DNA of 64,000 nucleotides from a virus, in IMG/VR virus record IMGVR_UViG_3300027708_002747, positions 1-64,000 of that record; one strand, given 5' to 3'. This document shows positions 1,883 to 62,942 of the stretch, piece after piece. A program made the translations under genes and the position numbers. Under the pieces are notes generated by a model that was given only the letters and a program-made list of their open reading frames with translations, was not told the DNA's origin and did no database searches. Numbering within the stretch: position 1 is the stretch's first letter; the number at the start of each line of letters is the position of its first letter.

Positions 1883-3127
1883 TTATAAATTTCCTGTTAT
1901 TCTCTCACACCAATCTTTTGACTCCGAATGTGGCCAAACCACCCAATATTTTGGTTTTGAATCTGTTAAGAACTCTCTCCAAACTTTACAATATTTATCA
2001 GGGTCATTCATCATCATTTGAATTTCATTTTTATCAGCATCTTGTCTGTAAATGGTTTCATCTTTTTCATTATGAAACGCAACAACCCAAAAGTCGTAAT
2101 CTTTTTCAGGAACTTGTGTAAAACCAATATCAATACAGTGTTTAAAAACAGATGTAAATGATTTTAACCATTCCTCCTCTGAGTTGAAGTCATATGGATT
2201 GGGTGGATAACCTTTATCTAATGTATATTGTTGAACGGCTCTTTTTGAAAATAAAAGTCCTGAGTACTTTTCATAATCTTTTAAACTTCTAACCTTACCA
2301 AAACCATACTTACCGTGATTCATATTTTCTTCGTCATCCATACTAAATAAAGAACGATTTTTTTTATGAGCAAAATTATTTTTATCTACCCACTGTGAGT
2401 CATCATCCCACTGTTTGACACGTCCCTTTCTTGTGTATTCATGCCAAATCAAAACTTTATGAGGATGAAATAAATCATACCCATGAGTATAAGCTCTTGC
2501 AGCAATTGATATTTCCTCACCATGAAAATAAAACTCAGGGTCGTGTTGAACTTCTTTAGCAAATTTTCCTAATGTAAAACAAAAGTGTGCGGAATAAAAT
2601 CTTGCCGTTACAGGTTCAGTTAAATTCTGCCATCCTGGAATTGTTTCAGGTAAAAAGAAAACAGCCCCTTCGGGAATAAATCTATCAAACGCCATTCTCC
2701 ATGGCTCCTGTGTTCTACTATTTGGGTCATTATCAGGGTCAAAAGATGATACATATCCTGTCAATAATGGTTTCTTATAACCCTTATTCTGTAAGTCCTT
2801 AACCATCTTAATCATCTCAACATCCCAATTGGGGGCAAACCTCATGTGTGAGTCAATTTGAAGGGTATACGATTCTTTGTCGTATACCTGTTGAATTTGA
2901 TTGCGAGCCCAACAAGCACCTTTTGACTCATTGTATGGGATATCTAAAACTCTAAATCTTTCATCACCTGAATATTCAGATAAGTCATCAAACTTATCAT
3001 CAGGGTGATATTGCCGAGCAATACCAAAAACCAAATTGTTTGGTTTTTTAGCATTTTCTAAAGCGGATTTAATTGTTGGAATTAATTGGGGGTCTCTATA
3101 TGACGCGATTTGAATGAAAATTTTCAT
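1883..3127 (-). CDS. GT60-like polypeptide GlcNAc-transferase (Skp1-hydroxyproline GlcNAc-T family)
   Basis: IFIQIASYRD, GACWAR, LQIDSHMRF..WD, FHGEEI and AYTHGYDLFHP motifs. Start taken at the ATG of MKIFIQ. Confidence 0.8.
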   Translation of the reverse strand: MKIFIQIASYRDPQLIPTIKSALENAKKPNNLVFGIARQYHPDDKFDDLSEYSGDERFRVLDIPYNESKGACWARNQIQQVYDKESYTLQIDSHMRFAPNWDVEMIKMVKDLQNKGYKKPLLTGYVSSFDPDNDPNSRTQEPWRMAFDRFIPEGAVFFLPETIPGWQNLTEPVTARFYSAHFCFTLGKFAKEVQHDPEFYFHGEEISIAARAYTHGYDLFHPHKVLIWHEYTRKGRVKQWDDDSQWVDKNNFAHKKNRSLFSMDDEENMNHGKYGFGKVRSLKDYEKYSGLLFSKRAVQQYTLDKGYPPNPYDFNSEEEWLKSFTSVFKHCIDIGFTQVPEKDYDFWVVAFHNEKDETIYRQDADKNEIQMMMNDPDKYCKVWREFLTDSKPKYWVVWPHSESKDWCERITGNL

Positions 3128-3161
3128 AATCAAATCTTAATTGAAAATTAAAAAATATAAA

Positions 3162-3605
3162 TTATTTTTTCTTTATTTTCACGTATTTGTACCACAATCT
3201 TTCGTGGACAAAATAAATAACGGGTTTTAATGTTAACTCACCGATACCTAATAAAGAAGACATTTCTAAAGATACTCCACAAGAAAGAGCAACTAATACA
3301 GTTGTTAACGTTCCGAGTAAACGGTAAGAAATTGTTTTTAAGATATGACGAAGAAGAACTGTTTCTTCTTTTACAGTTGTAACATAAGCAACATTATCTT
3401 TGACAACACAGTGACCTTCACAACTGATGTGCCATTTATATTCACCTAACTCGGGCATCCAATCTTTTGTCGTTGATGTATGACCATCGATAACAATCTC
3501 AGATACCAATATTTCATTACCATTTTCAATTAATCTCCATCTGTCTTCATCGGATGTTGATTTTACATTGAATCTAATTTGAAACTTTTTAATTTTGTCT
3601 TTCAT
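3162..3605 (-). CDS. Small beta-rich domain fused to a DUF2061 membrane domain
   Basis: C-terminal RHILKTISYRLLGTLTT...E...K..IYFVHERLW matches the DUF2061 pattern. Confidence 0.7.
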   Translation of the reverse strand: MKDKIKKFQIRFNVKSTSDEDRWRLIENGNEILVSEIVIDGHTSTTKDWMPELGEYKWHISCEGHCVVKDNVAYVTTVKEETVLLRHILKTISYRLLGTLTTVLVALSCGVSLEMSSLLGIGELTLKPVIYFVHERLWYKYVKIKKK

Positions 3606-4000
3606 AATTTCCCTTGAGCTCTTAATTCTTCTCTAATTTTAGTTGCGGAAATATCATGTATTTCTTGTGGTGGAACTCTTTCGATTATATTGTAACCAAC
3701 ACCTCTACCAAACTCAATAGAACAAATATCAGGAATAATCATAACTTTAACTTTATCTCCCATATCGGAGTAGTGATTTTCGATATTTGTTTTTACTTCT
3801 TCAGCACTATATGGATTTTTTTCGTCAGGTTGAATGTCTCTAATACAAATTAAAACATTTTTACCTTCATCCATTACTTGTTGAAACAACGATTGATGTC
3901 CTTTGTGTAAAGGTTGCCATCTACCTACAAACATAGCATATTGTCCGTCTTTTGCAGGTAGAGATGATTCTACGTGAATTTTTTTATCCCAGTTACTCAT
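3602..4000 (-). CDS. Small HxGH nucleotidyltransferase (cytidylyltransferase-like); candidate minimal ATP sulfurylase
   Basis: GRWQPLHKGH, GRGVGY and ISATKIR motifs; overlaps the APS kinase gene. Confidence 0.7.
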   Translation of the reverse strand: MSNWDKKIHVESSLPAKDGQYAMFVGRWQPLHKGHQSLFQQVMDEGKNVLICIRDIQPDEKNPYSAEEVKTNIENHYSDMGDKVKVMIIPDICSIEFGRGVGYNIIERVPPQEIHDISATKIREELRAQGKL

Positions 4001-4425
4001 TTTCTATTAAAAGGTATTAAATTAAGACATTCGTCTATTGTTTTATTTGTTGTGTCAATATTAATAAAGTTTTCCGTTGGAACTTCATATTCTTTAACAA
4101 AATTTTGCTCTCTACCTCTAATTTCACTTGTATGAACATAAAGTTCACATACTTCATTAGTTTCTTTAAGTGAATCTCTCATACTTTTGTATGGTGCAAC
4201 TACCGAAATAACTACAGTAAATCCTTTATGGTCTAAAAAACGAGCCAAATCTAATACAGATTGGATGTTCTTTACTCTACCCTCAGCGGAGTAATCGAAG
4301 TTTTGAAATAGTTCTCTTAAACCATCTCCGTCAACATTAATACAAGTATCCGAGCACTTCTCAATAAGTGCGTTTGCTAATGTTGTTTTTCCAGCCCCTG
4401 GCTGACCTGTAAACCAATAAATCAT
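3997..4425 (-). CDS. cysC: Adenylylsulfate (APS) kinase
   Basis: WFTGQPGAGKTT P-loop, DGDGLR, R..NI, VVAPY...R, YEVP. Confidence 0.85.
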   Translation of the reverse strand: MIYWFTGQPGAGKTTLANALIEKCSDTCINVDGDGLRELFQNFDYSAEGRVKNIQSVLDLARFLDHKGFTVVISVVAPYKSMRDSLKETNEVCELYVHTSEIRGREQNFVKEYEVPTENFINIDTTNKTIDECLNLIPFNRK

Positions 4426-5246
4426 ATGTTCTTTTGATAATTAAAAATTTCGTAAAACCACTGGTAATTATTATAAATCCAATCACTCACATCTTGTCCT
4501 AAAACTTTATTTGCCGATGATGGAGTAAGTTCCAAGCTCTTTCTAATAGTATGGTCACCAAACATACCATAAATCTCGTCATCTTCTTTGGTAACTTGTT
4601 CAATATTATCAAAATCGTGTTCAAAAAAGGGAATTTCTAAATAATTGTAAATCTTTAACATTGTTGCCTCAGGATACAAACATAAATCTTCATATCTAAT
4701 AAACAACATTTTTTCATTAATTCCTTGTCTAAAAACTTCACCCAATCGTTCAATTGCCATACCCACAGGTTGTGAGTTAGCCCAAACATCAACTCTCTTT
4801 GGTGTTGTTGTCCCTTTAAGTTCCGCATGATTGACGATACCCATATCTTTATACTGACTTTTACGAAAGTTCTTTTCCATAGAACAGAAAATATCACGTA
4901 AATCTCTTACCATACAAATAATTTTTGGTTCAGGGAATACTTCATTTAAAAAACCGTAATGAACTCCCCATCCTCTACTTTTATCAACAACATATTTTTT
5001 ATCTGTAATTGCGGTGAAGAAACCTTCAACACCTTTTTTACAAAAAGATAAGTAACCTTGTTTCATTAGTTCGGTGTCCTGTGCTTTAAATTCAGGTGAT
5101 GACGAATAATTTGCTCTCGCTCCATAGATTAATTCTAATACCCCACTTGTTGGTGTTGCGTAGACATCGGGATTTTGAGCTAAAATGTTTTGTAACATTG
5201 TGCTACCAGCTCTTGGTAGTGAACTTTGAAAGAATAATTTCTCCAT
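4422..5246 (-). CDS. PAPS-dependent sulfotransferase
   Basis: SLPRAGSTML (5'-PSB loop), DKSR, MVRDLRDIFCS (3'-PB motif) and IRYEDL. Confidence 0.85.
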   Translation of the reverse strand: MEKLFFQSSLPRAGSTMLQNILAQNPDVYATPTSGVLELIYGARANYSSSPEFKAQDTELMKQGYLSFCKKGVEGFFTAITDKKYVVDKSRGWGVHYGFLNEVFPEPKIICMVRDLRDIFCSMEKNFRKSQYKDMGIVNHAELKGTTTPKRVDVWANSQPVGMAIERLGEVFRQGINEKMLFIRYEDLCLYPEATMLKIYNYLEIPFFEHDFDNIEQVTKEDDEIYGMFGDHTIRKSLELTPSSANKVLGQDVSDWIYNNYQWFYEIFNYQKNI

Positions 5247-5632
5247 TATATAATTGTTTTAATAAATTTCCAATAGTCGGGACCTCCATATGATGTGCAG
5301 ATTTCCTCGCCGATTTCAATATCACGATTTGACACGAAATAGTAAAGAGCTGAGTTAGAATCGCAAGTCCAAAAAGCATTATTATTTTCACTATGATTGT
5401 AGATACAACCATAACCTAAAGGAATTGCGAAATGTGTTGGATTTTGACCACAGGGATAAGAAAATCTATATTTTAAAAGAACATCATTTAAATCACCCAA
5501 ATCTGTCCTGAAAAAAATTACATAACAGGTTTCAATGATTTCATCTTTATTAATTTTTTCTTTAGCAAAAACACCCAATCCATGAATGTGAGATGCTTTT
5601 ATTTCTATCTTTTGTGGGATAGGTATATTCAT
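5246..5632 (-). CDS. SET-domain protein lysine methyltransferase
   Basis: S.IHGLGVFA, IYNHS, RDIEIGEEICTSYG. Confidence 0.9.
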   Translation of the reverse strand: MNIPIPQKIEIKASHIHGLGVFAKEKINKDEIIETCYVIFFRTDLGDLNDVLLKYRFSYPCGQNPTHFAIPLGYGCIYNHSENNNAFWTCDSNSALYYFVSNRDIEIGEEICTSYGGPDYWKFIKTII

Positions 5633-5633
5633 A

Positions 5634-6503
5634 TTAATCTTCTAAAGATTGTAATACATCCTCAACACTAAAAATTTCTTCTTCTGAGTTATATGGGAAT
5701 TCCATTGGTTCCCCTAAAATGTTAAACTGATTTAAATAAGATAATTTAAGTTCAGGTTTCTTTGTAAATTTGTTGTGAACAATATTTTTGTTAAGTCCAT
5801 AACCAAATACTTTTGGTGAGTTTGCAACCCACAATACTGTTGAGGACATTCCTAATGCTGATGCGGTATGTTGCGCAAAACTGTCCATGAATAATCTTTT
5901 TGAACTCATTGCGATAACTATTGATATCGCTCTAAAACTATCTGTCAACTGAACGGTATCTCTTAATGCCGGTTGGTCATCTCTTCTAATATGGAAGATG
6001 GTGTAAGCATATTTTAATTTATCAACAACTTGTTGTGCGATATTATGAGGAATATCTCTTGCCCAAGAATACTTCATATTTTGTTCAATACCACCATTGG
6101 TTTGAATTACCATAATTGGTTTGTCAGTAGTGTATTTTTTAGAATAAAATTGTTGTTCTCTTTCGGTGATGAAAATGTTTGTTTTTTCACCGTTGTATTC
6201 CAAATCAAACAACTTACACCAAGTTTGGATTACGTGTTCTTCACTTTTAAGATGTTCTGTATCAAGATACGGGTCGTGAGCGAATATTTTAAAGTCACCA
6301 TTTTCAATATAGTCTGAGTAGAAATATTTGTGTTCACCAAAGGCATATGCTCTGTCAACAAATGGGTTGTTTAAGAATACATCAGGATAACCTGATACAA
6401 CGATTAATTTTGATTCTGGGTATTTCTTTTTTAGGATTTCACAGATAGCGGTTCCCATCACACATTTACCAATACCTCCATTTATTTGAAAAATAATATT
6501 CAT
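5634..6503 (-). CDS. GT9-like (heptosyltransferase-type, GT-B) glycosyltransferase
   Basis: GGIGK, F.NNPFVD, MDSFAQHTASALG..STVLW. Confidence 0.65.
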   Translation of the reverse strand: MNIIFQINGGIGKCVMGTAICEILKKKYPESKLIVVSGYPDVFLNNPFVDRAYAFGEHKYFYSDYIENGDFKIFAHDPYLDTEHLKSEEHVIQTWCKLFDLEYNGEKTNIFITEREQQFYSKKYTTDKPIMVIQTNGGIEQNMKYSWARDIPHNIAQQVVDKLKYAYTIFHIRRDDQPALRDTVQLTDSFRAISIVIAMSSKRLFMDSFAQHTASALGMSSTVLWVANSPKVFGYGLNKNIVHNKFTKKPELKLSYLNQFNILGEPMEFPYNSEEEIFSVEDVLQSLED

Positions 6504-58419: not shown

Positions 58420-58467
58420 TAGTTGAATTTAAGAACAAATTCATTTAATTTTAATAAAAACTATTTT

Positions 58468-60531
58468 ATGACAGATTCAGTTGAAGAGGGTGGGAAACTA
58501 CCAAAAAAGACAGAGGTAAACTCAAGTACCCCTGTTTTAGATAATTTTAGTCGTGACCTTATCAAACTTGCCGAAGAAGGTAAGTTAGACCCCGTTGTCG
58601 GTAGGGAAGATGAAATATTACGTATTGCTCAAATTCTTTCAAGAAGAAAGAAAAATAACCCAATTATCATCGGTGAACCTGGTTGTGGTAAGACGGCGAT
58701 TGTTGAGGGATTGGCAATGAAGATTTTTGAAGGTGATTGTCCAAGAAACTTGGTCGATAAACGTATTCTATCATTAGAGATGAATTCAGTTGTTGCAGGA
58801 ACAAAATATCGTGGTCAATTTGAAGAACGATTAAAGGTTATCTTGGAAGAAATTCAAGCGAACCCAAATGTTATTCTATTCATTGACGAAATTCATACCA
58901 TTGTAGGAGCAGGTAACGCCTCAGGTTCTATGGATGCCTCCAACATCTTAAAACCAGCGTTATCAAGAGGTGAAATACAATGTATTGGAGCCACCACATT
59001 GGATGAATACAAAAAACAAATTGAGAAAGATGGGGCGTTAGACAGACGCTTCCAAAAAGTAATTGTCAGTTCATCAACAAAAGAAGAAACATTACAAATT
59101 CTTAAGAATGTTAAAGACAAATACGAAAATTATCATAAAGTAAATTATACTGATAATATTCTACAAATCTGTGTTGATTTAGCAGAACGATATATCACCG
59201 ACAGAGAGTTCCCTGACAAAGCATTTGACATCTTGGATGAAGTCGGTGCAAGAGCTCAGGTAGATGTGAAAAATCCTGAAATAATTGACGAATTAAAACG
59301 TCAGGCCTTAGAGATTAAACAACAAAAATTACTTGTTGTTAAAAAACAGAATTACGAAGAAGCCGCAAACTTAAGAGATAAAGAAAAGAAAGTTTTATCA
59401 CAACTTGATATTGAAAAGAAAAAGTTTGAACAAACTCTTTTGGATAATAGAAAAACAATTTCAGAGGAATTGGTTTATGAGGTGGTGTCAACAATGACAA
59501 AAATACCTCTAACAAAACTTAATTTAGATGATAAGATTGCTCTTATTAATTTAGAAGAAGAATTAAATAAATCAGTCATTGGACAAAAAGAGGCGGTTAC
59601 AAAGATTGCAAAATCTATTCGTAGAAATAGATTAGGTATTAAAGACCCAAATAAACCAATTGGTTCATTTATATTCTTAGGTTCAACAGGTGTTGGTAAG
59701 ACATTATTGGCAAAAGAATTGGCAAAACAAATCTTTGGAAGCGATGAAAATCTTATTCGAGTTGATATGTCTGAATACCAAGATAAACATACCGTATCTC
59801 GTTTAATTGGTTCACCTCCTGGTTATGTAGGATATGATGAAGGTGGACAACTTACAGAACAGGTAAAAACCAAACCATACTCTGTAGTATTATTTGACGA
59901 GGTTGAGAAAGCTCACAAAGACATATTCTCAGCATTACTTCAACTATTGGATGAAGGTTACATGACAGATAGTTTTGGAAGAAAAATCAATTTCAAAAAC
60001 TGTTTAATCATTATGACATCAAATCTTGGGGTAAAAAAGATGCAAGAGTTTGGAGCAGGGGTTGGATTTAGTAAGACAGGTAATGTGTATACCAATGAAG
60101 AACTTAAGAAAACAATGTTAAACAAAGAATTAAAGAACCATTTCGCGCCTGAGTTTATCAATCGTTTGGATGAAGTAATTGTATTCAACACACTTCAAAA
60201 TGACGATATCCAAAAGATTGTTTTGGTCGAAGTCAACAAATTAAAATCTCGTTTATCAAAATTGGGATATAACATTAACTTCGGTCAGTCAGTAATTGAT
60301 TTTGTTTCAAAAGTTGGATTTGATGATGTTTACGGAGCACGTCCTTTGAAGAGAGCAATTCAAGAAAAGATTGAAGACTACATTTCAGATGAAGTATTAC
60401 GTGAAAAAATTGTAATGGATAAAACCTACAATATTGAAATTAATGAAGAGGAAGTGTCGATATCGGAGGTTGAGGTCCAACCTGATGAAACGCCAAAAGT
60501 GAAAAGAACAAGAAAGAAAAAGGGGGAATAA
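58468..60531 (+). CDS. clpC: ClpC-like AAA+ unfoldase lacking the N-terminal domain
   Basis: Two NBDs ([15 protein letters not shown] and [17 protein letters not shown]), UVR-type middle ([13 protein letters not shown]), GVGF ClpP-docking loop. Start taken at MTDSVE. Confidence 0.9.
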
Positions 60532-62547: not shown

Positions 62548-62942
62548 GGGGATGTTTTTGGATTTGACAGGTATGAATCTGTCATAAAACGCACGTCGGG
62601 GCTAAACTAACCCTGTAAAACTGGTTTAAAACACAAACGGCAACACAATTGCAAAACTTTCTACACTCGGTTTAATCCGTACTGAAGAAGTAACTGTAGC
62701 CTAATCTAAGATTAGTATACAACGGGGTCGGTGAGCATATAACCTTGCAACAGAAGCTTGTACCGTGGTGTGGTTTCTATCCGAAAAGGAACAAAGTGGA
62801 GGATTAGTTCTCAGTAAACCGAACCACTATAAAATAAGGGAATTGTGAAGTTTCGGATTGTTTAGAAAAACAATGACCTAAACGTGTAGTGTTTTATGGT
62901 CGACATATTTGGACCGGCGTTCGAGTCGCCGCATCTCCACCA
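62548..62942 (+). ncRNA. ssrA: tmRNA; predicted tag (A)GNTIAKLSTLGLIRTEEVTVA
   Basis: 5' GGGGATG pairs with 3' CATCTCC (G3.U alanine identity), followed by ACCA; GGATTTGAC D-loop-like motif; CGGCG-TTCGAGT-CGCCG T-arm; tag ORF at 62639-62704. Confidence 0.93.

Follow-up and report, generated by a model that had tools for sequence, protein, structure and literature searches.

A putative phage sulfation cassette carrying a candidate minimal ATP sulfurylase of NadM-type ancestry

PAPS synthesis in described systems and its proposed course in the phage cassette

All biological use of sulfate starts with ATP sulfurylase, of which textbooks recognize two types, Sat and CysDN. Sat (PF01747; structures 1v47, 1j70, and 4dnx) is a nucleotidyltransferase of about 350–400 residues in which a PUA-like N-terminal domain precedes a catalytic domain of some 200 residues, and CysDN is a heterodimeric, GTP-driven enzyme built from a PP-loop ATPase and a GTPase. 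In the bifunctional synthases of 3′-phosphoadenosine 5′-phosphosulfate (PAPS), represented by metazoan PAPSS1/2 (1x6v) and, as Sat-CysC fusions, by 2gks and 3cr8, the sulfurylase is joined to a kinase for adenosine 5′-phosphosulfate (APS). Here, we describe a four-gene cassette from a 64,000-nucleotide stretch of phage DNA (the window; positions 1 to 64,000 of IMG/VR virus record IMGVR_UViG_3300027708_002747), in which overlapping genes encode a sulfotransferase, an APS-kinase-like protein (KIN), a small HxGH nucleotidyltransferase (NT), and a DUF2061 fusion. The original prediction for this locus was that NT is a stripped-down ATP sulfurylase that completes PAPS synthesis; the comparisons presented here suggest instead a putative new enzyme lineage that probably carries out this known reaction.

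The open-reading frame (ORF) list of the window places all four genes on the minus strand where they had been predicted. The PAPS-consuming enzyme is a 274-residue sulfotransferase (4422–5246) matching Sulfotransfer_3 (PF13469; 75.1 bits, cut-off 27) and PF00685 (49.3 bits, cut-off 22). It is followed by KIN, a P-loop kinase of 142 residues (3997–4425; APS_kinase, PF01583, 64.7 bits, cut-off 21.1), by NT, of 132 residues (3602–4000; CTP_transf_like, PF01467, 28.7 bits, cut-off 21), the candidate NadM-derived minimal ATP sulfurylase, and by the 147-residue DUF2061 fusion (3162–3605; PF09834, 46.5 bits, cut-off 23.1), in which residues 88–138 cover profile positions 1–51 of 52. The 4-bp start/stop overlaps noted in the original prediction are present at all three junctions, each of which reads ATGA, with the stop codon TGA overlapping the next ATG.

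We put the probability at roughly 70% that the cassette both makes and spends PAPS, with NT acting as the sulfate adenylyltransferase, and that it serves sulfation rather than assimilation. NT would adenylylate sulfate (ATP + sulfate → APS + pyrophosphate (PPi)), a reaction that is unfavourable, and KIN would then phosphorylate the 3′-OH of APS to give PAPS, pulling this first step. The kinase, coupled to NT by translation here and by fusion elsewhere, would clear APS by turning it into PAPS. The sulfotransferase would spend PAPS to sulfate something that the surrounding glycosyltransferases make, for which a glycan of the virion or of the host envelope is the likeliest candidate, and the DUF2061 membrane protein would assist, perhaps by supplying sulfate or by anchoring at the membrane.

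This proposed logic, a sulfurylase joined to an APS kinase, is that of the PAPS synthases, and fused relatives of the phage proteins also match the PAPSS domain order, with the kinase N-terminal and the transferase C-terminal. Unlike in PAPSS, however, the transferase is of a different family, the two halves in the window are separate and translationally coupled, and the lid of the kinase is shortened. With Sat, NT would share its reaction and does share the nucleotidyltransferase superfamily, and in some genomes it occupies Sat's niche beside aprA and cysC, but NT is far shorter, and neither the PUA-like N-terminal domain nor the catalytic domain of Sat was found in its 132 residues, in which PF01467 is the sole Pfam match. 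CysDN performs the pathway step proposed for NT, but with an unrelated fold and with a GTPase partner that the cassette lacks. NadM-type nicotinamide mononucleotide adenylyltransferase (NMNAT; 1f9a, which is MJ0541, as well as 1ej2/4yp7 and 2qjt) is the described enzyme that NT resembles most, sharing the motifs GRxQPxHxGH, NP(F/Y)T, (P)DI(E), and SxTxxR and the Rossmann-like HxGH nucleotidyltransferase chemistry, although NT is paired with an APS kinase and not with Nudix or NAD genes.

Phage cysC genes have been reported as auxiliary metabolic genes in freshwater surveys (PMC10914622) and are probably of the same kind as KIN. In the available portion of that report, phages with cysC have larger genomes and the gene is read as an aid to assimilatory sulfate reduction, and an adjacent transferase, DUF2061 protein, or sulfotransferase goes without mention. 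Neither a small NadM-like ATP sulfurylase nor a place for DUF2061 in sulfate metabolism was found described in the literature searched, the scope of which excluded subscription journals.

Linkage to the kinase and genomic context in viruses and cells

Under the original prediction, NT homologs unlinked to cysC would have spoken against it, but the link holds across the family. A kinase homolog lies directly upstream of NT in 78/80 viral loci (all viral counts refer to these 80 loci, retained from 242 confirmed relatives), and in the other two, NT lies at a contig edge. Because of this recurrence, the arrangement in the window is not attributable to chance. The kinase is likewise adjacent to or fused with NT in 70 of the 80 cellular loci to which all cellular counts refer; these were retained from 421 found with a 15-row alignment and come from SAR11, SAR86, Marinimicrobia, Bacteroidota, marine group II and haloarchaea, Omnitrophota, and Acidobacteriota.

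Fusions make the same connection within single proteins. PF01583 is present in 33/53 longer NT homologs and in 35/48 long cluster representatives, with a best E-value of 9.5e-69; 48 of the 49 long representatives were scanned, P0189 (1425 aa, 22 repeated matches) having been dropped before the tally. In P0152 and P0167, NT is fused to a full-length canonical CysC, and kinase-NT fusions of about 245 aa are encoded by cultured phages, namely Stenotrophomonas phage DLP6 and Xylella phage Bacata with its relatives. In Bacata, the fusion is preceded by a gene (3154–3597) annotated as COG3236 / GTP cyclohydrolase II-like. Among relatives of NT, P0125–P0139 (278–431 aa) have sequence like that of HNH-type homing endonucleases in frame before NT, of the NUMOD3 type in P0137, and from these sequences mobile endonucleases seem to insert between kinase and NT.

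Many of these viral neighborhoods also contain a consumer of PAPS, a sulfotransferase. The window enzyme has an N-terminal PRAGST stretch and a VRDLRDIFCS stretch, which resemble the 5′-phosphosulfate and 3′-phosphate binding motifs of PAPS sulfotransferases, and a homolog of it is found within 5 kb of NT in 41/80 viral loci. A different sulfotransferase family, PF03567 (Sulfotransfer_2), is found directly upstream of the kinase in locus L012, the single member of its cluster scanned against Pfam, with cluster mates in L013–L015. Counting both families, sulfotransferases flank at least 45/80 viral loci. Others are found elsewhere in the genome, as in phage record G002 (99% complete; PF00685, 23 bits) and in DLP6, with a PF03567 match of 35.5 bits to an enzyme similar to that of L012. 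A weak PF03567 match in Bacata (13.6 bits) was rejected as a sulfotransferase, the ORF being dissimilar to the DLP6 and L012 enzymes and having an acidic tail. The surroundings of the cassette in the window are glycan genes, including a GT60-like N-acetylglucosamine (GlcNAc) transferase and further glycosyltransferase-like genes, and in other viral loci the cassette lies among glycosyltransferases, a DegT aminotransferase, and an epimerase. A haloarchaeal metagenome-assembled genome (L145) has a 541-aa ORF (4720–6342) containing kinase and NT beside a 519-aa ORF with a Sulfotransfer_3 match, apparently an archaeal counterpart of the cassette.

The original prediction also held that the window contains no PAPS reductase and that the cassette looks meant for sulfation of a macromolecule rather than for sulfur assimilation. 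PF01507, the family of both CysD and CysH, had no match in the window, across the whole 84.7-kb source record, or in five related phage records, and PF01747 reached its cut-off in none of five phage records, the window's own included. Two of the phage records searched in this way are 99–100% complete. These absences indicate that the cassette cannot reduce sulfate and has no known sulfurylase, and, with sulfotransferases nearby or elsewhere in the genome, they favor the predicted role in sulfation.

A similar pattern was found in cells. Among five NT-bearing cellular genomes, PF01747 was found in none and PF13469 sulfotransferases in all. A complete SAR86 genome has two strong sulfotransferases together with kinase-NT, and searches of this genome for Sat, the PF01507 family, and AprA were all without a match, which leaves no known route to APS there. 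Directly upstream of kinase-NT in this complete SAR86 genome (L141:4619–5518) is a gene for a membrane protein of the PF03601 family (Cons_hypoth698, YeiH-type), to which NCBI gives the name "putative sulfate exporter".

The SAR11 order allowed a comparison among related genomes, using a sample of 61 with a requested completeness of at least 85%. Strong NT matches (E ≤ 1e-21) were present in 48/61, and the set of genomes with aprA was identical, consisting of the same 48. CysD was distributed in a complementary manner, exceeding its cut-off in 5/61 genomes, comprising 0/48 NT-positive and 5/13 NT-negative genomes (Fisher p = 2e-4, a value that overstates independence because the 13 NT-negative genomes are possibly one or a few clades). 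In 13 genomes carrying a second NT subtype, the NT match stops 366–375 bp short of the aprA match and lies on the other strand, which makes the two genes convergent neighbors instead of a single operon. Sulfite and APS are interconverted by AprBA, whose usual partner in linking APS to sulfate is Sat; a role for NT in filling Sat's gap beside AprBA fits this distribution. A 2025 paper on SAR11 calls the sulfur pathways of these bacteria incomplete (PMC12636525).

The fourth cassette gene is linked to sulfate activation as well. A DUF2061 homolog follows NT in 64/80 viral loci, NT and DUF2061 are joined in one protein in 1/48 long representatives, and DUF2061 precedes the kinase in one Pelagibacteraceae genome. 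An independent link to sulfate activation exists in Bacteroidia, where DUF2061 is carried by 10 of 81 genomes sampled (requested completeness at least 90%) and lies within 1 kb of a cysD/cysH-type gene in 4 of the 10 carriers (G130, with both copies, G145, G102, and G086). One of the other carriers has DUF2061 within 4.4 kb of cysD/cysH, three have the genes on different contigs, and two are without such a gene.

Ancestry of the nucleotidyltransferase and competing explanations

NT belongs to a large family, with 5057 near-length proteins and 1204 clusters at 50% identity, each counted at E ≤ 0.001; if its members are named by their sources, the label is mostly "cytidyltransferase-like protein". 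Its best NCBIfam matches are NF002243 (36.7 bits, 3e-9) and TIGR01527 (31.6 bits), far under the family cut-offs of 127 and 181.2, respectively. The nearest PDB entry is 2qjt by sequence (2.4e-5) and 1f9a by family profile (8e-16). The AlphaFold2 model of NT (pLDDT 90.9) has a Rossmann-like fold, and its top fold matches are all nucleotidyltransferases; over Foldseek ranks 1–50, NMNAT comes first, followed mostly by phosphopantetheine adenylyltransferase (PPAT). VIA-align gave the same order, with NMNAT 1f9a at Z 9.8 over 110 residues, PPAT 4nah at Z 9.6, and NadM/NadR at Z 8.0–9.0.

The motifs named in the original prediction, HKGH, GRGVGY, and ISATKIR, were found at residues 32–35, 98–103, and 117–123, and G26, R27, H32, G34, H35, R54, P63, G98, R99, V101, G102, S118, T120, I122, and R123 are near-invariant across the family. 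When aligned to 1f9a and 4yp7, NT keeps the ATP-site motifs of NMNAT (GRWQPLHKGH, residues 26–35, and SATKIR, 118–123), and its R27, H35, and R123 align with NMNAT R11, H19, and R136, residues for which PDB titles list mutant structures. The difference lies in the segment after the DIE motif, where about 33 residues of 1f9a (chain 77–109) are replaced in the NT family by about 8 ending in GRGVGY, as read from a profile alignment in which the step from profile position 84 to 93 corresponds to residues 76 to 110 of the 1f9a chain. The nearly invariant arginines R54 and R99 are also absent from NMNAT. We take the segment after DIE to be the part of NMNAT that binds nicotinamide mononucleotide (NMN), and, if so, NT would have lost the old acceptor site and gained cationic residues that suit a small oxyanion. 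NT would have arisen from a NadM-type enzyme by keeping GRxQPxHxGH and SxTxxR, losing the residues after DIE, and gaining invariant arginines in IRD and GRGVGY.

Comparison with Sat gave much weaker results. No Sat appears among the Foldseek matches listed for the NT model (ranks 1–50), and the VIA-align scores of Sat chains, Z 7.6 over 115 residues for 1v47_B (rank 9) and Z 5.2–6.2 for the others, lie below those of NMNAT and PPAT and within a range that, by the tool's own guidance, may indicate no more than a shared arrangement. For the window's NT, PF01747 gave no match at E ≤ 0.01 (cut-off 24.3 bits), and its matches to the NT genes of four related phages are of 14.1–17.9 bits over profile positions 29–80; these were rejected as signs of Sat ancestry, as they fall on the shared HxGH region alone. 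NT does have Sat-like features in its HxxH, in a strand end of the form G-R-(D/G), and in an IS(G/A)TxxR-like motif. Since NT is nearer to NMNAT and PPAT in every search, and PF01747 does not match it, NT is neither a member of the Sat family nor a truncation of it, and both sequence and fold model indicate a derivative of a NadM-type adenylyltransferase. The original prediction of a stripped-down Sat is therefore not supported, although linkage and fusion to the kinase, sulfotransferases nearby or elsewhere in the genome, and the absence of Sat, CysD, and CysH from the phage records leave NT as the best candidate for the ATP sulfurylase step. Should NT be a sulfurylase, its activity would have an origin separate from that of Sat.

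KIN is most similar to APS kinases. Its PDB sequence matches are led by 7yq0 (3.4e-17) and 8a8h (7e-14); the best 21 of 23 belong to APS kinases or their domains in larger proteins, and zeta toxin 1gvn and adenylate kinase 4cvn come last. The PF01583 match spans profile positions 4–110 of 152. All 28 viral homologs compared have the P-loop (G12, K13), D32-G33-D34 (DGD), R37, R50, N53, and P78 without variation, and we take the P-loop, DGD, R37, R50, and N53 to be the Mg- and APS-contacting residues of APS kinase. Because KIN scores 73.5 bits against TIGR00455, under the NCBIfam equivalog cut-off of 138.7, and has a lid that falls about 14 residues short of that in the canonical forms P0152 and P0167, we call it a short-lid APS-kinase-like protein. 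The kinases of SAR11, SAR86, and the Salvovirus type are more divergent, with 22–48 bits to PF01583 over the first ~90 of 152 profile positions only, RQ in place of N53 (N53 → Q), and a variable first aspartate in DGD.

The closer relationship of NT to NMNAT and PPAT than to Sat, together with the low equivalog score and short lid of KIN, is the first of several observations that weigh against PAPS synthesis and sulfation by this cassette. No recognized sulfotransferase lies within 5 kb in 35/80 viral loci, none of the three families searched was found in the 56-kb genome of Bacata, which has the kinase-NT fusion, and among the related phage records, G004 has no sulfotransferase and G003 a weak match, both records being incomplete. 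The fusion in Bacata may serve another end. The window also has no pyrophosphatase candidate, and it lacks a small HAD-type gene (~113 aa) that accompanies the cassette in 23/80 viral loci. In the loci listed, this gene lies between kinase and NT, and the one member of its cluster scanned against Pfam (L034:4658–4996) matched Hydrolase_3 with 29.1 bits; in those relatives it could remove PPi or 3′-phosphoadenosine 5′-phosphate (PAP), making it a candidate phosphatase for the pathway. Within SAR11, the correlations lack phylogenetic independence, the neighbors of kinase-NT are unrelated genes in most genomes, and 8/13 NT-negative genomes are without both CysD and Sat. Sat occurs in 2/61 genomes, one NT-negative and one NT-positive, so that NT and Sat co-occur in the latter. 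A second, full-length CysC (60–121 bits) is found in addition to the short kinase in nine NT-positive genomes (G005, G014, G016, G020, G040, G048, G051, G060, and G063), in which Sat and CysD were not found.

Many bacteria make their own APS, and KIN could draw on APS made by a host Sat, CysDN, or AprAB, leaving NT to nucleotide recycling, regulation, or scaffolding rather than sulfate adenylylation. The freshwater study interprets phage cysC simply as an auxiliary gene whose product uses APS of the host (PMC10914622). The lack of specific similarity between NT and Sat would suit this explanation, and AprAB of SAR11 could make APS from sulfite. We nevertheless consider it unlikely, as it leaves unexplained both the pairing of NT with the kinase in viral loci, cellular loci, and long representatives, and the full set of adenylyltransferase catalytic residues that NT retains. 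It also does not account for the complete SAR86 genome, which has KIN-NT and two sulfotransferases yet is without Sat, CysD, and AprA. To our knowledge, PAPS metabolism includes no other HxGH-type reaction. A further explanation, that the cassette serves sulfur assimilation by boosting host cysteine synthesis, is the usual published reading of phage cysC (PMC10914622; PMC8066274). This we regard as highly improbable here, given that the PAPS/APS reductase family was not found in the window's record or in the five related phage records, that the sulfotransferase gene overlaps the kinase gene and sulfotransferases recur beside the related loci, and that the surroundings are glycosyltransferases and sugar-modifying enzymes.

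The substrate of NT could also be something other than sulfate. If NT adenylylated NMN, a phosphonate, or a sugar or alcohol phosphate, and the kinase then phosphorylated the 3′ position, the product would be a 3′-phospho-ADP-X cofactor, following the logic of CoA synthase or NadR. The nearest relatives of NT (NMNAT, PPAT, and NadR), the divergence of the SAR11, SAR86, and Salvovirus-type kinases, the COG3236-type neighbor and lack of a detectable sulfotransferase in Bacata, and the SAR11 gene contexts unrelated to sulfation are all consistent with this. Canonical CoaD, however, is present in 4/5 NT-bearing genomes, as is CoaE (4/5), the fifth genome being that of an archaeon, and two SAR11 genomes have a second full-length PF01467 gene of 176 aa, a candidate NadD. 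CoA synthesis therefore does not require NT, and NAD synthesis probably does not either. The CoA-synthase version, with NT as PPAT and the kinase as dephospho-CoA kinase, was rejected in cellular carriers on account of the CoaD and CoaE genes, and an NMNAT or NadR-like function is made unlikely by the deleted segment after DIE, with which the 176-aa gene is concordant. In addition, some fusion partners of NT are unmistakable CysC proteins, the viral kinases keep DGD, R37, R50, and N53, and the neighboring sulfotransferase, aprA, and DUF2061/cysD genes all point to APS, making a different acceptor improbable in our view.

If sulfate is the substrate, a broader proposal can be made, to which we lean with some reserve. 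NT would represent a third, minimal class of ATP sulfurylase (~110–135 residues), derived from NadM-type NMNAT, that provides giant phages with PAPS. In SAR11, SAR86, Marinimicrobia, marine Bacteroidota, and some archaea, it would complete the sulfur pathways described as "incomplete", linking APS to sulfate both beside AprBA and ahead of APS kinase, and DUF2061 would be a dedicated membrane partner for sulfate supply. If this is true, a third type of ATP sulfurylase would exist that is three times smaller, and the annotation of sulfur metabolism would change in the ocean's most abundant bacteria, SAR11 included. Phage "cysC" genes would have to be reinterpreted as components of autonomous sulfation kits and not as helpers of assimilation, with sulfated glycans as a surface chemistry made by phage, and NT and its kinase would offer a very compact enzyme pair for PAPS regeneration in biotechnology.

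The DUF2061 fusion and neighboring genes

The DUF2061 fusion has a conserved N-terminal beta domain (approximately residues 1–80) followed by a two-helix hairpin. Its AlphaFold2 model (pLDDT 82.2) has strands within residues 6–77 and helices at 81–108 and 113–141, and in this model the two long helices are probably membrane helices. Foldseek found no PDB match to the fold better than E 0.05, and the N-terminal 85 residues had no usable match in the ESM Atlas. Papers found to mention DUF2061 deal mostly with metal or iron regulation, and sulfate does not figure in their titles and abstract openings; a part for DUF2061 in sulfate supply is a guess. One NT homolog, P0142, is fused to a C-terminal PF01883 domain (FeS-assembly SUF / DUF59), and this fusion, taken with the DUF2061 literature on metals, makes an iron or FeS connection of NT/DUF2061 possible.

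Upstream of the sulfotransferase, and overlapping its start by 1 bp with its own stop, is a minus-strand gene for a 128-aa SET-domain protein (5246–5632; PF00856, 47.2 bits). SET-domain homologs were found in 4/80 viral loci and near KIN-NT in 6/80 cellular loci, and the status of this gene as a cassette member is uncertain. The cellular homologs have E-values of 1e-6 to 6e-11, lie a few kb away, and are all from SAR11 (L101, L105, L110, L117, L123, and L130). The next gene on the same strand encodes a 289-aa protein of no Pfam family (5634–6503), its only Pfam match being sub-threshold. Homologs of this protein adjoin the sulfotransferase or DUF2061 gene in 35/80 viral loci, and it is probably a glycan-building partner of the cassette. 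Directly downstream of the cassette, also on the minus strand, is the gene for the GT60-like GlcNAc transferase (1883–3133; PF11397, 232.4 bits), a homolog of which is present in 3/80 viral loci.

PHROGs matches for a major head protein, portal, and large terminase identify the window as phage. The source record is a fragment with an estimated completeness of 29%, so that its 84.7 kb would correspond to a full genome of around 290 kb. On the plus strand, the window encodes a Lon-like ATP-dependent protease of 702 aa (58423–60531; phrog_4871, E 1.8e-237), an unusual cargo beside structural genes, and ARAGORN identified a plus-strand tmRNA gene (62548–62942) with the tag peptide AKLSTLGLIRTEEVTVA.

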